A stretch of 64,000 nucleotides of DNA from Escherichia phage L14, in the sequence record OQ992558.1, one strand, 5' to 3'. The first letter of the stretch is position 1, and the number at the start of each line of letters is the position of its first letter. Shown here piece after piece: positions 15,674 through 22,489 of this stretch. Under the pieces are notes generated by a model. That model saw only the letters and a list, made by a program, of their open reading frames with translations. It was not told where the DNA came from and did not search any database. Position numbers and translations under genes: made by a program.

Positions 15674-16852
15674 TTAAAAGTATTTTTTAAAACTCATCAT
15701 AACTTTATCATCAACATCATTATCAATCTGTGCAACAAGATAAGATGACAGTTCTACTTCTTGTGGCGCTGATTGAACATTATCAGAATTAAGATATTCA
15801 CGAATCCAAGGATATGGATGTTTAACCGGAGCATCGGTAATTGGGCATGGAAGACCGCACTGTTTCATACGAGATACAGTTAAGTAATCAATAAAGCTCC
15901 ACATGCTATTTGTATTTAATCCAGGAACATCGCCATCTTTAAATAAATGAACTGCCCAATCTTTTTCTTGACGGTTAACTTCCATGAAAATATCAACTGC
16001 TTCTTGTTCACACTCTTGAGCAATTTTAACCCATTGATCGCCATCAGTACCAGATTGAAGTTGACGAATAATATATTGTGTACCTTTAAGATGAAGCTGC
16101 TCATCACGTGCAATGAACTTCATAATCTTGGCATTACCTTCCATGATTTCCATGTTTTTATGGAAGTTAAAGGTACACGCAAAGGATACATAAAAACGAA
16201 TAGCTTCTAATGCATTAATAACGTGCAAACAGAGGTAAAGAGATTTCATTAGCTCACGCTTCCAATATGTCTCATGCTCAATAGCATCTTCAATAACGTC
16301 TTCGTCTGCATTAATTTCTTTTTGGTATTCGATATCAGCTTTAGCGTTTTCCCAATAACGAGTTTTAATCAGAACATCATCATAATAACGTCCAATGGAT
16401 TCAGCACGTTTCATAATAGCTTCATCTAATACAATTTCATCAAATACCTTCGATGGATCAGTATAAAGATTTCGCATGATATGAGTATATGAACGACTGT
16501 GAATAGTTTCACTAAAAGTCCATGTAGCAACCCATGTATCAAGGCTTGGGTCTGAAATTAATGACATAAGTACAGCAGATGGCGCGCGACCCTGAATGCT
16601 ATCTAAAAGTGATTGATACTTCAAGTTGTTAGTAAAAATATTTTGCTGATACTGAGGAAGCTTATTAAACTGTGCAGCATCCATCATCAAGTTTACTTCT
16701 TCAGGACGCCAGAAAAATGATAATTGCTTTTCGGTTAAATCTTCAAAAACTTTATGACGTTGAATATCATAACGCGCAATACCAAGACCTGAACCAAAAA
16801 ACATAGGTTCTTTTAAAACATCAACTGGATTTGTATTAAAAACTGTGCTCAT
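15674..16852 (-). CDS. nrdB: aerobic ribonucleotide reductase small subunit, uninterrupted
   Basis: 392-aa continuous ORF with class I RNR beta features; no intron. Confidence 0.93.
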   Translation of the reverse strand: MSTVFNTNPVDVLKEPMFFGSGLGIARYDIQRHKVFEDLTEKQLSFFWRPEEVNLMMDAAQFNKLPQYQQNIFTNNLKYQSLLDSIQGRAPSAVLMSLISDPSLDTWVATWTFSETIHSRSYTHIMRNLYTDPSKVFDEIVLDEAIMKRAESIGRYYDDVLIKTRYWENAKADIEYQKEINADEDVIEDAIEHETYWKRELMKSLYLCLHVINALEAIRFYVSFACTFNFHKNMEIMEGNAKIMKFIARDEQLHLKGTQYIIRQLQSGTDGDQWVKIAQECEQEAVDIFMEVNRQEKDWAVHLFKDGDVPGLNTNSMWSFIDYLTVSRMKQCGLPCPITDAPVKHPYPWIREYLNSDNVQSAPQEVELSSYLVAQIDNDVDDKVMMSFKKYF

Positions 16853-16903
16853 AAATTTTCCGCTTAGTTAATAGTTGGTGACTCGTCCGTGAGTCAAATT
16901 ATA

Positions 16904-19168
16904 TCATAATTTACAGGATGAACAATCTTCAGCTTTTGGAGTTTCTATTTCATAATCATCAGTACCAGAACCATCGCGTGTATTATGATAATAGAAATTT
17001 TTAATGCCATAATACCATCCGTATAGCATGTCATCAATCATTATTGACATTGGAACCTTTCCTTTTGGAAAAATCTGCGGATCATAATATGTATTCGCTG
17101 AAGCTGATTGACATACCCATTTCAGCATAATAGCTACCTGCGTAAGATAAGGTTTATTACCTTTCTTGGCTAATTTCCATGTATAATCATAGAGGTCTAT
17201 GTTATGCTCAATATTCGGAACAACTTGATTAAATGAACCATCTTTTGATTCTTTAACACTTACCGGTCCGCGTGGAGGCTCGATGCCGTTTGTACTGTTA
17301 GATACCTGACTGGACGATTCACAAGGCATAAGTGCTGATAATGTGCTATTACGGATGCCAAAGAGCTTAAGGTCTTCCCGCAGCGCCGACCAGTCACAAA
17401 CGTATTTTGGAGCTGCGATTTGGTCAATCTTTTTATTGTACCAGTCGATAGGTAATTCGCCTCGAGACCAACGAGTGTCTGAATAATATTCGCAAGGTCC
17501 TTTTTCTTTGGCGAGCTTAATGGATGCTTTAATGAGTCCATACTGTAATCTCTCAAATAATTCATGTGTTAAATCGTTAGCATCTTCATAAGAAGCAAAG
17601 TTACTTGCCAGCCAAGCTGCATAGTTGGTAACACCTACACCAAGGTTACGGCGCTTTTTAGCTTTTTCTGCTTCAGGAACTGGATATCCTTGGTAATCCA
17701 ACAGATTATCAAGAGCACGAACTTGAACTTCTGCCAATTCATTAATTTTATCTTGGTCTTGCCAGTCAAAATTATCTAGTACGAATGCAGAGAGAGTACA
17801 CAATCCAATTTCAGCATCAGGACTATTCACATCATTTGTTGGAATAGCAATTTCACAGCACAAGTTACTCTGACGAATAGGCGCCTTTTCACGAATAAAC
17901 GGAGTATAGTTATTCGTATTATCAATGAACTGCACATAAATCCTTGCGGTTCCTGAACGTTCAGTCATGAGCAATTCAAATAGTTCACGGGCTTTAATAC
18001 GCTTTTTACGAATATTAGGGTCTTTTTCTGCTGCTTCGTATAATTCACGGAAACGGTCTTGGTCTTTAAAATAAGAATAATAAAGCTCGCCACCCATTTC
18101 ATGCGGACTGAACAAAGTAATGTAATCATTCTTTCCGAATCGTTCCATCATCAAATCATTCAGTTGAACACCATAATCCATATGACGAATGCGGTTTTCT
18201 TCTACGCCTTTGTTATTTTTCAAAACAAGAAGATTTTCAACTTCCAAATGCCAAATAGGATAATAAGCAGTAGCAGCGCCGCCACGAATTCCACCCTGTG
18301 AGCATGATTTAACAGCAGTCTGAAAATGTTTCCAAAAAGGAATAACACCAGTATGGCGTACTTCACCCATGCCAATCTTAGAACCTTCAGCACGAATCAT
18401 ACCAACGTTAATACCAATTCCAGCGCGTTTAGAGATATATTCAACAATTGAAGCAGAAGCCTTATTGATAGACTTCAGTGAATCGCCTGCCTCAATAACA
18501 ACACATGAACTAAACTGCCGAGTTGGAGTACGGCAACCAGCCATAATAGGAGTTGGTAATGAAATCTGTCGAGTAGATACCGCTTCATAAAAACGGATAA
18601 CATGTTTTAATCTATCAACAGGTTCATCTTGATGCAATGCCATTCCAATAGTCATAAATGCAAACTGTGGAGTTTCATAAATTTGACCAGTGGTTTTATC
18701 TTTAACTAGATATTTTTCTTTTAATTGCATCGCCCCGGAATAAGTAAATTCCATATCCCGCTCGTGCTTAATTTTTGATTCTAAAAATGTAATTTCTTCT
18801 GCTGAATATTTTGACAATAATTCAGGGTCATATTTACCTTCATTTACACAGTAAGAAATATGGTCAATAAATGAACGTGGTTCATACTGCCCATAAACAT
18901 GCTTACGAAGAGCGAACATTAAACAACGTGCAGCTACATATTGATAATCAGGCTCTTCAACCGAAATAGAATTCGCAGCGGCCTTAATGACAATAGTCTG
19001 AATATCATCAGTTGTCATTCCATCACGGAGATAAGATTTAATATTTTCATATAATTCATAAGGATCTACTGATGTTCCTTCAGCTGCCCAAGATAAAACT
19101 TTAATAATTTTTTGCGGGTCAAAGCTCTGAGAAACACCACTACTTTTGATAACATTAATTAATTGCAT
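16904..19168 (-). CDS. nrdA: aerobic ribonucleotide reductase large subunit
   Basis: 754 aa, recognised as T4 NrdA. Confidence 0.95.
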   Translation of the reverse strand: MQLINVIKSSGVSQSFDPQKIIKVLSWAAEGTSVDPYELYENIKSYLRDGMTTDDIQTIVIKAAANSISVEEPDYQYVAARCLMFALRKHVYGQYEPRSFIDHISYCVNEGKYDPELLSKYSAEEITFLESKIKHERDMEFTYSGAMQLKEKYLVKDKTTGQIYETPQFAFMTIGMALHQDEPVDRLKHVIRFYEAVSTRQISLPTPIMAGCRTPTRQFSSCVVIEAGDSLKSINKASASIVEYISKRAGIGINVGMIRAEGSKIGMGEVRHTGVIPFWKHFQTAVKSCSQGGIRGGAATAYYPIWHLEVENLLVLKNNKGVEENRIRHMDYGVQLNDLMMERFGKNDYITLFSPHEMGGELYYSYFKDQDRFRELYEAAEKDPNIRKKRIKARELFELLMTERSGTARIYVQFIDNTNNYTPFIREKAPIRQSNLCCEIAIPTNDVNSPDAEIGLCTLSAFVLDNFDWQDQDKINELAEVQVRALDNLLDYQGYPVPEAEKAKKRRNLGVGVTNYAAWLASNFASYEDANDLTHELFERLQYGLIKASIKLAKEKGPCEYYSDTRWSRGELPIDWYNKKIDQIAAPKYVCDWSALREDLKLFGIRNSTLSALMPCESSSQVSNSTNGIEPPRGPVSVKESKDGSFNQVVPNIEHNIDLYDYTWKLAKKGNKPYLTQVAIMLKWVCQSASANTYYDPQIFPKGKVPMSIMIDDMLYGWYYGIKNFYYHNTRDGSGTDDYEIETPKAEDCSSCKL

Positions 19169-19725: not shown

Positions 19726-20037
19726 TTACACCGCCATTTTTCCTTTCAAGACGCCGTGGGACTGATAATCTTTGAGAACGAAATCTTTAGGCCTGAGTTT
19801 AAGAATGTATTCCAATTGTTCTTTAGTAGAAAGATAGCGGAATTTATAAGGCAATCCGCCTATTACCAGTTCACAAAGCTCTTTAGGTTCACGACGCAAA
19901 ATTTCTTTACATTGTTCTACGTGATTCATATAGATATGAGTATTACCACCGGAAAATATCAAATCTCCCGGAATAAGATTACACATCTTAGCTACAATAT
20001 GAACTAACGTAGCATATGATGCAATATTAAATGGAAG
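19726..20037 (-). CDS. td: thymidylate synthase, exon 2
   Basis: encodes LPFNIASYATLVHIVAKMC...; the ATG at the ORF start is the last 3 nt of the intron (omega-G). Confidence 0.9.
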   Translation of the reverse strand, partial: LPFNIASYATLVHIVAKMCNLIPGDLIFSGGNTHIYMNHVEQCKEILRREPKELCELVIGGLPYKFRYLSTKEQLEYILKLRPKDFVLKDYQSHGVLKGKMAV

Positions 20038-20357
20038 CATTATGTTCAGATAAGGTCGTTAATCTTACCCCGGAATTATATCCAGCTGCATGTCACCATG
20101 CAGATCAGACTATATCTTCAACTTGTTAAAGCAAGTTGTCTATCGTTTCGAGTCACTTGACCCTACTCCCCAAAGGGATAGTCGTTAGGCATTTATGTAG
20201 AACCAATTCCATTTATCAGATTTTACACGGTAAGTAACTAATCCTGATGAAATTATTAAAGGGTAGTCCTACAATTTAGCACGGGATTGTCTACTAGAGA
20301 GGTCCCCCGTTTAGATAGATTACAAGTATAAGTCACCTTATACCTAGGCCTCAATTA
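20038..20357 (-). ncRNA. group I self-splicing intron in td, about 320 nt, no internal ORF
   Basis: intron ends match my memory of the T4 td intron (5-prime UAAUUGAGGCCU..., 3-prime ...CUGAACAUAAUG); in-frame TAA directly after exon 1; no ORF over 60 aa inside. Confidence 0.85.
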
Positions 20358-20906
20358 ACCCAAGAAAACATCTACACTGCGTTGATACCATTGTAAATCA
20401 AGATAACCATTACGCACATTAAACTGATAGAACATATGACAAGGTGGTAATGCCATATATTTAAGTTCAGCTGGATTCCACGCAGAAACAATTTGACGCC
20501 TATCACTTGGTAGTTTTTTAATACGATCAATAACTTCTATAATTTGGTCTACACCGCCAAAATCGCGCCACTGTTTTCCATAAATTGGGCCAAGTTCACC
20601 ACTATGGTATCCTAAATCTTTTGCCTGATTTTCGTAATTTTCATCCCAAACTGTTTTGCCTTGGATTAACGAATCATGCTGAATTAATCGTAAATCATTG
20701 ACATTTGTGCTTCCTGATAAAAACCAAAGTAGCTCAGCAATGCAAGCTTTCCAGGCGAGCTTCTTAGTTGTTACCGCAGGAAAACCTTTAGTTAAATCCC
20801 AGCGTAATTTAGTACCGAATAAAGCAATTGTTCCTGTGCCTGTTCGGTCATCGGTTTCATAGCCATTTTCAAAAATGTCTTTAATTAAATCTTGGTATTG
20901 TTTCAT
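20358..20906 (-). CDS. td: thymidylate synthase, exon 1
   Basis: 183 aa ending ...VDVFLG, then intron. Confidence 0.9.
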
Positions 20907-20951
20907 TTAGTACCTTATATAAATTATAATACATTTTATGAAGCTAAATAA

Positions 20952-21299
20952 TCAATACGGTTTAGCATCAAATTTTCTCTCAATTTCAGGTGTGAAATAT
21001 AATTCTTTACCACGTTTGGAAAAGCGACCAATAATATGATAATTATTCTCATCAAACGTGATATTACCAATATCCATAGCTTTCAACCAAATATCGATAT
21101 TTCTATCCAGCTTTATGTCAAAATTCCAATACGGAGAACTATTACCGAAAATACTGCAAGCGGATTCAGTGAAACAACTGCTATAAATCTTGTCTTTAGG
21201 AACTACTAATTGATAGACACCTTTAATAAACTGAGGACCCTGCCACTTTGGCTGTTTCGTGTCTTTTTCTAATAGAATAGGGTAATAATTAAAATTCAT
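20952..21299 (-). CDS. hypothetical protein (115 aa) inserted between frd and td
   Basis: coding-strand ORF MNFNYYPILLEKD...; no motif recognised. Confidence 0.55.
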   Translation of the reverse strand: MNFNYYPILLEKDTKQPKWQGPQFIKGVYQLVVPKDKIYSSCFTESACSIFGNSSPYWNFDIKLDRNIDIWLKAMDIGNITFDENNYHIIGRFSKRGKELYFTPEIERKFDAKPY

Positions 21300-21318
21300 A
21301 TTTCCGCCACGCGTTATT

Positions 21319-22145
<827 letters not shown>

Positions 22146-22156
22146 ATTGCCTCCTA

Positions 22157-22489
22157 TTAAAAAGGATCAGTAACATATCCGCTAGCTTTAATCATTTTAA
22201 TTAACGTTAACATTCCTTTGTTAACTGCTCGTGAGATTTCATCAAAAACTTCATCACTAAAAAGTTCTAACACGCCCTTCTGAACTTTTAATTTACAGCC
22301 AACAATTTCGTCATCTCCTATAGTAAATTCGCTTCCGCCAATTCCGCCGAAAAACTTAATTACGCCAGTTAACTGTCTTCCACGAGAATATGGGTCGTGT
22401 GATAAAGTAATATGAGTCACCCCAGGTACAGTTTTAAATTGGCAGCGGATGTTTACTTGAGCAATTCCAGTTACATGAATGTCAGACAT
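22157..22489 (-). CDS. hypothetical protein (110 aa)
   Basis: coding-strand ORF. Confidence 0.55.
   Translation of the reverse strand: MSDIHVTGIAQVNIRCQFKTVPGVTHITLSHDPYSRGRQLTGVIKFFGGIGGSEFTIGDDEIVGCKLKVQKGVLELFSDEVFDEISRAVNKGMLTLIKMIKASGYVTDPF

Follow-up and report, generated by a model that had tools for sequence, protein, structure and literature searches.

The DNA analyzed here is a 64,000-nt stretch of Escherichia phage L14 (record OQ992558.1), referred to as the window in its entirety. On its minus strand, a 115-aa open reading frame (ORF) lies between frd, which encodes dihydrofolate reductase, and td, which encodes thymidylate synthase and is split by a group I intron (Table 1). After td, the same strand continues with nrdA.2 (DUF5496), nrdA.1 (DUF4326), and nrdA. 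A preliminary description of this DNA had reported a 115-aa ORF on the same strand as frd and td and between them, and both its coordinates and its account of the layout are correct. The ATG of the ORF follows the frd stop codon at a distance of 19 nt, and a ribosome-binding site is annotated at the position of the GGCGGA motif in the record of Escherichia phage U115, a Tequatrovirus. An 801-bp query across the ORF (20700-21500) is 100% identical to U115 and finds query coverage of at least 80% in 355 records; over the wider region, identity to U115 is 99.5%, with one additional ORF in the window. A second copy of the gene within the 64-kb window was considered and rejected, as an HMM search of the window's ORFs with the family returns this ORF alone.

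Table 1. Features of the frd–td region in the window, with related features of other genomes
Feature	Position	Strand	Remarks
td.1 coding sequence	20952-21299	minus	ATG start, TGA stop, 115 aa; PHROG 1928 member
frd (dihydrofolate reductase), upstream neighbor	21319-21900	minus	193 aa; Pfam DHFR_1, E 3.6e-19
td exon 1 (thymidylate synthase), downstream neighbor	20355-20906	minus	183 aa; Thymidylat_synt, E 4.2e-64
Group I intron of td, Rfam match	20086-20367	minus	RF00028, 70 bits
Group I intron of td, extent	20041-20354		~314 nt, no I-TevI ORF
td exon 2	19726-20040	minus	
Weak Shine-Dalgarno-like GGCGGA	21303-21308	minus	just 5ʹ of the td.1 ATG
td.1–td spacer	20907-20951	minus	45 nt; td ribosome-binding site AAGG and TATAAT hexamer
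Direct repeat, copy 1	21317-21325	minus	TAAATGAAA on the coding strand; includes the frd stop codon
Direct repeat, copy 2	20901-20909	minus	TAAATGAAA; includes the td start codon
First ORF of the frd/frd.1 interval	21900-22145	minus	81 aa; phrog_3183; alias RB32ORF231c
Second ORF of the frd/frd.1 interval	22157-22489	minus	110 aa; DUF7247; phrog_3566
Gene 3ʹ of nrdA (U115_239)	~16170-16904		labeled putative homing endonuclease in U115; 243 aa
68-aa gene (phrog_9550), Shigella phage JK08	L013:2578-2784		
68-aa gene, other genomes	L010:3648-3854; L029:4670-4879		
T4 td intron segment missing from the window	L002 5769-6459		~690 bp

Neither of the gaps flanking the ORF contains a predicted intrinsic terminator. 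The sole terminator-like site of the interval falls within frd and scores no better than chance in the promoter and terminator scan, and a generic promoter scan of the spacer before td likewise gives one promoter-like site at chance level. The TATAAT of this spacer is a perfect hexamer, and approximately 10-12 nt upstream of it lies TTTAGCTTCA, which we take to resemble the MotA-box motif of T4 middle promoters. If this promoter is real, td would have a middle promoter of its own, lost by T4 along with the deletion described below.

Comparison with database records indicates that the ORF is td.1, a T-even gene that is already annotated and therefore not a new observation. The name derives from the T2H record AY262132.2 (protein ABI48932.1), and the gene appears under the alias RB32ORF229c in the records of RB32, RB14, RB51, and T6. 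Its carriers include T2, T6, RB14, RB32, RB51, RB68, AR1, HP3, and PST. The T2H protein has the same length and the same position between frd and td, and it is 99% identical, with one substitution (T14A); the window copy is another allele of that gene, with no difference of substance. AY262132.2 is the source of the T2 sequence used by Wilson and Edgell in 2009, where td.1 is not mentioned (PMC2790892), nor is it mentioned in a review by Edgell (PMC2988022). Literature searches found no paper on td.1. Four records that carry the same ORF (MZ501052.1, PQ571308.1, MW749000.1, and OM386666.1) give it conflicting labels, namely "putative homing endonuclease" (the label in MZ501052.1, the AugustSocin record), "putative dihydrofolate reductase", and "putative glucose-1-phosphate adenylyltransferase". 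Domain and structure searches give no support for any of the three. A dihydrofolate reductase identity in particular was rejected, as td.1 has no DHFR_1 match, whereas the adjoining frd matches this domain clearly (Table 1).

It is virtually certain that td.1 is a real, conserved gene. The match to phrog_1928 (E 1e-35) places residues 4-111 on positions 2-125 of a 126-position profile, and within Tequatrovirus the protein is 97-100% identical. Codon differences between the window and T2 comprise 14 synonymous and 1 non-synonymous changes, and those between T2 and T6 comprise 11 and 0; judged by these counts, td.1 is under purifying selection. Among 25 divergent members of the family (homologues at 26-66% identity), Q16, W19, G27, G91, K95, and G97 are invariant, and L9, Y29, R92, F93, and F102 are nearly so. 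The corresponding family motifs, Q-x-x-W, (H/K)G-x-Y, and G-R-F-x-K-x-G-x(4)-F, are all present in the window copy. The predicted product is a hydrophilic protein of 13.7 kDa with a pI of 8.5 and 17% aromatic residues, and the GC content of the gene (32%) is not foreign for the genome. A functionless ORF, either a chance frame or a pseudogene in decay, could be argued from the lack of a known domain and from the fact that T4 lives without it. However, this reading has practically no probability left, being refuted by conservation: the 14:1 and 11:0 ratios, a full-length frame in at least 362 records, motifs invariant across the 25 divergent members, and a confidently predicted fold all speak against it. 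The preliminary description would have given up its interpretation had conservation and coding signal been lacking; the codon differences, the PHROG match, and the motifs provide both.

The overlap of frd and td in T4 is reported to have been described by Purohit and Mathews in 1984. The complete T4 sequence (NC_000866) shows an overlap of 4 bases (ATGA) with no gene between the two, and GenBank M12742.1 is the record for this overlap. The preliminary description had given the T4 genes as adjacent, with overlapping stop and start; the genome record and the alignment of the junction bear this out, and T4 itself does not carry the ORF in its frd–td interval. The flanking genes are the same in T4 as in the window, at approximately 95% nucleotide identity, but T4 is missing a segment of 416 bp. 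On the coding strand, the window reads ...GTATA-TAAATGAAA-TAACG... at the frd stop and ...GTAC-TAAATGAAA-CAATAC... at the td start when aligned with T4, and the T4 junction reads GTATA-TAAATGAAA-CAATAC. The T4 sequence GTATATAAATGAAACAATAC thus has the left-hand flank from copy 1 and the right-hand flank from copy 2. In the window, 416 bp separate the two 9-bp copies, copy 1 marks the boundary of the T4 deletion by alignment, and on the T4 side the blastn alignments of the two flanks share 12 bases. The ATGA overlap of T4 therefore corresponds to a fusion of the two repeats that flank td.1 in the window, and the junction has exactly the sequence expected of recombination between two 9-bp direct repeats. 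The possibility that T4 retains a paralogue of td.1 elsewhere was rejected: when the ORFs in all six frames of the complete T4 genome were searched by HMM, no member of the PHROG 1928 family was found (best E 0.06).

The repeats alone cannot settle the direction of this event because an insertion with target duplication gives an identical pattern. A tblastn search with the td.1 protein returned 580 phage records, with 362 at 90% identity or more and 218 below 60%; the latter are other genera of Tevenvirinae. Comparing the frd–td junction across T4-like genomes had been proposed as a check in the preliminary description, and td.1 homologues were found in the slot. At every inspected locus a homologue lies between frd and td: in Edwardsiella phage PEi26 (Kanagawavirus), Klebsiella phage Mineola (Jiaodavirus), Erwinia phage Cronus (Roskildevirus), Salmonella phage STML-198 (Gelderlandvirus), Citrobacter phage Moon (Moonvirus), Serratia phage CHI14 (Winklervirus), Klebsiella phage Biddle_MM4 (unclassified in its record), and a single metagenomic contig. 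The homologue is immediately 3ʹ of frd in all of these except Cronus, where a paralogue comes first. Homologues in the other genera are 26-48% identical to td.1, and their start and the frd stop usually share 1-23 bp. Relative to the window copies, identities in other genera are 32-44% for td.1, 45-54% for Frd, and 78-84% for Td, which fits vertical descent with td.1 evolving faster. The metagenomic contig departs from this pattern (63% for td.1 and 49% for Frd), so some exchange is possible. Because td.1 shares both slot and descent across genera, T4 would be a deletion derivative and the phage studied here would not have gained the gene. We therefore consider it very probable that td.1 is ancestral to the frd–td interval of Tevenvirinae and was deleted in T4.

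This reverses the view of the preliminary description, in which the ORF had been inserted between frd and td; homologues occupy the same slot across other genera, and the T4-type junction is a minority. An insertion could have taken the form of a recently arrived mobile cassette, such as a free-standing or degenerate homing endonuclease gene. Presence and absence do vary among close relatives, the segment is bounded by 9-bp direct repeats, homing elements (I-TevI, mobE) abound in the region, and the AugustSocin record carries the homing endonuclease label. However, the 25 family members give no match to a GIY-YIG, HNH, or other nuclease domain at E up to 1, there is no nuclease among the structural neighbors, and orthologues hold the same position in seven other lineages, with a divergence that roughly parallels that of Frd. 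With the T4-type junction confined to a small minority and a GC content that is not foreign, a mobile cassette is very unlikely and already largely refuted; the lack of a nuclease domain and a distribution that is not sporadic speak against its homing endonuclease form in particular.

Within Tequatrovirus, sequence comparison indicates that the frd–td slot is an accessory site with three alleles, bounded by flanks that are at least 95% identical. td.1 is carried by approximately 70% of Tequatrovirus-type records, and about 362 records, including T2, T6, and U115, have td.1 only. Approximately 135 records, including the JK08 and SH7 group, have only a gene encoding 68 aa, and about 20-40 of 514 junction-matching records have neither; these include T4 and its derivatives, HY03, and vB_EcoM_F1. 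Most of the other genera inspected have a second ORF in the interval, encoding 113-144 aa, that is a paralogue of td.1 (for example, PEi26 ORF-252, Moon gp253, and Cronus AWD90399). The two match with an hhalign probability of 99.5% (E 4.8e-23) and hit the same PHROG, and BFVD models of the paralogue align to the td.1 model with TM-scores of 0.64-0.71. Both share an N-terminal LxLxxxDxxQKxW motif, an HGxY motif, and a C-terminal GRFxKxGxxxxF motif. The paralogue differs by an insertion of approximately 14 residues (APTIEQYKRNPxKY) after the conserved Trp, and it is only 19-26% identical to td.1. This tandem paralogue is absent from the window and from the Tequatrovirus genomes examined.

The 68-aa gene, found just 5ʹ of td in some genomes, is a third gene of the interval and unrelated to the other two. 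In JK08-type phages its product is basic, and the gene extends over the frd stop at one end and the td start at the other. A Klebsiella phage and a metagenomic contig each encode the protein at 81% identity, and homologues at 40-44% identity occur in unrelated large myoviruses such as phAPEC8; the gene may have moved between phage groups. The idea that the JK08 allele is a truncated td.1 was rejected, as the hhalign probability is 0.5% and the PHROG is different.

Two further regions near the slot vary among these phages. The interval between frd and frd.1 contains two small minus-strand ORFs that have no T4 counterpart (Table 1). The second of them is also missing from U115, which is otherwise the closest record, and the window is therefore not identical to U115. 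By these comparisons, the interval 5ʹ of frd appears as polymorphic as the frd–td slot. The td intron of the window contains no I-TevI ORF and lacks approximately 690 bp relative to T4; the blastn alignments on either side of the gap share 8 bases (window 20253-20260), which suggests that the ORF-less intron reflects a further short-repeat deletion. Among broadly sampled phage records, I-TevI is present in nearly every td intron, and only SYGD1 matches the ORF-less form in one piece. A dependence of td.1 on the state of the td intron was rejected because T2, T6, and the window show three different combinations: td.1 occurs with an intronless td in T2, with I-TevI in T6, and with the ORF-less intron in the window. 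Further along, at the position equivalent to that of the gene 3ʹ of nrdA (U115_239), T4 has mobE, which is shorter (141 aa).

The PHROG 1928 family appears to be a tiny, single-domain family restricted to T4-like phages. Of 1.84 billion representative proteins searched exhaustively by HMM, 22 matched, two of them spurious repeat proteins and the rest 95-116 aa long. A broader profile collected 28 phage proteins of 113-148 aa, without Pfam domains and without fusions. In a scan of IMG/VR, all loci were on T4-like contigs, most of approximately 170 kb. No relatives were found in 185,579 bacterial and archaeal species, searched as one genome each with patterns that suit close relatives only. Domain searches with td.1 itself gave no Pfam match at E up to 0.1 and nothing meaningful in NCBIfam, Pfam gave nothing meaningful for the 25 family members, and a sequence profile search of the PDB with td.1 returned noise only (best E 0.078).

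Structure prediction of the 115-aa protein, which the preliminary description had also proposed, gave a confident model. From an alignment of 25 sequences, AlphaFold2 produced a model of td.1 with a pLDDT of 92.2 and a pTM of 0.85. Strands are predicted at residues 6-12, 27-34, and 62-64, followed by a helix at 68-77 and strands at 80-82, 86-96, and 99-104. The predicted protein is a single compact domain in the order β1-β2-β3-helix-β4-β5, which is the strand order of the OB fold. Independent BFVD models of family members match it with query-normalized TM-scores of 0.64-0.81. None of the structure-search matches is a significant structural neighbor; the weak neighbors in the PDB are mostly OB-fold nucleic-acid binders (HIN, Teb1, S1, RecO, RPA, and SSB). 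td.1 thus has the same predicted strand order as the OB folds of SSB, RPA, S1, HIN, and Teb1, but the structural matches to them are weak. In OB folds, the β1-β2 loop and the β4-β5 hairpin form the ligand cleft. By sequence position, Q16 and W19 of td.1 fall in the β1-β2 loop and R92, F93, K95, and G97 in the β4-β5 hairpin, so that the conserved aromatic and basic residues would sit in the loops of the cleft, a further likeness to OB folds.

td.1 is non-essential, has no catalytic signature, and is encoded within the frd-td-nrdA run. Since it has no catalytic motif, an OB-like strand order, and invariant residues in loops, it may be a non-enzymatic binding protein, a reading that we put at even odds; that the ligand would be nucleic acid is rather unlikely. 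In T4, transcription of the frd-td-nrdA region precedes DNA replication; td.1 would presumably then be made together with the enzymes of nucleotide-precursor synthesis. The mechanism that we propose is that td.1 is probably transcribed along with frd and td ahead of DNA replication, that its translation is probably coupled to that of frd or td in most genera, and that the predicted protein would most likely bind single-stranded nucleic acid or a partner protein, being dispensable on laboratory hosts. With low confidence, td.1 is thus regarded as a dispensable, non-enzymatic binder produced early with the nucleotide-precursor enzymes. The explanation as a whole, combining an ancestral td.1, its loss in T4, and an early non-enzymatic binder, could equally prove right or wrong.

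The dispensability of td.1 and the polymorphism of its slot make it plausible that td.1 is an accessory or host-interaction gene. In the most specific form of this idea, td.1 would be an anti-defense or host-takeover protein that binds and neutralizes a host immune sensor, effector, or other factor, with its target present in some natural strains of Enterobacterales. This overlaps with the reading of td.1 as a binder and differs from it in naming a host target. Such a role would account for the dispensability of td.1 to T4 on laboratory E. coli and for the turnover of the slot, where three alleles occur among phages with flanks at least 95% identical, and the tandem duplication and differential loss in other genera point the same way. 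Moreover, the protein is small and without an enzymatic domain, its gene lies in an early region, and the family is confined to phages of Enterobacterales. However, literature and database searches link the family to no defense system. PADLOC, which covers defense rather than anti-defense proteins, assigns td.1 to 0 families at E up to 1, and the 97-100% identity within Tequatrovirus, along with the fixed position adjoining frd, fits a housekeeping-adjacent role equally well or better. We consider an anti-defense function unlikely.

The same fixed position speaks for the idea that td.1 serves the deoxynucleotide-synthesis machinery as an accessory subunit or adaptor, binding to Frd, Td, or ribonucleotide reductase and adjusting their activity, stability, or assembly. 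The position between frd and td is constant over eight lineages, start and stop codons overlap with frd or the downstream gene in most genera, suggesting coupled translation, and td.1 belongs to one operon-like run with nrdA.2, nrdA.1, and nrdA. Yet Frd and Td are functional without td.1 in T4 and in JK08-type phages, and in T-even genomes the neighbors of a gene say little about its function; an adaptor role is accordingly quite improbable. A bolder variant of the early-binder reading, in which PHROG 1928 (td.1 and its tandem paralogue) would be an unrecognized fold family or an extremely diverged OB fold whose early-made members bind nucleic acid or a host factor and so counter a defense or regulate nucleotide supply, is speculative and, by our estimate, unlikely.

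td.1 is in itself of little moment, being annotated in hundreds of T-even genomes and named in the record behind the 2009 paper. What the comparison changes is the view of T4: the textbook ATGA overlap of frd and td would be the scar of a deletion mediated by short repeats, and T4 would be the exception among its relatives. If the more speculative reading of PHROG 1928 is true, the loss of td.1 would contribute to differences in host range or sensitivity to defense between T4 and phages of the T2 and T6 type. Furthermore, should the family have a role in host interaction, T2 or T6 compared with T4 would constitute a ready-made natural knock-out pair.
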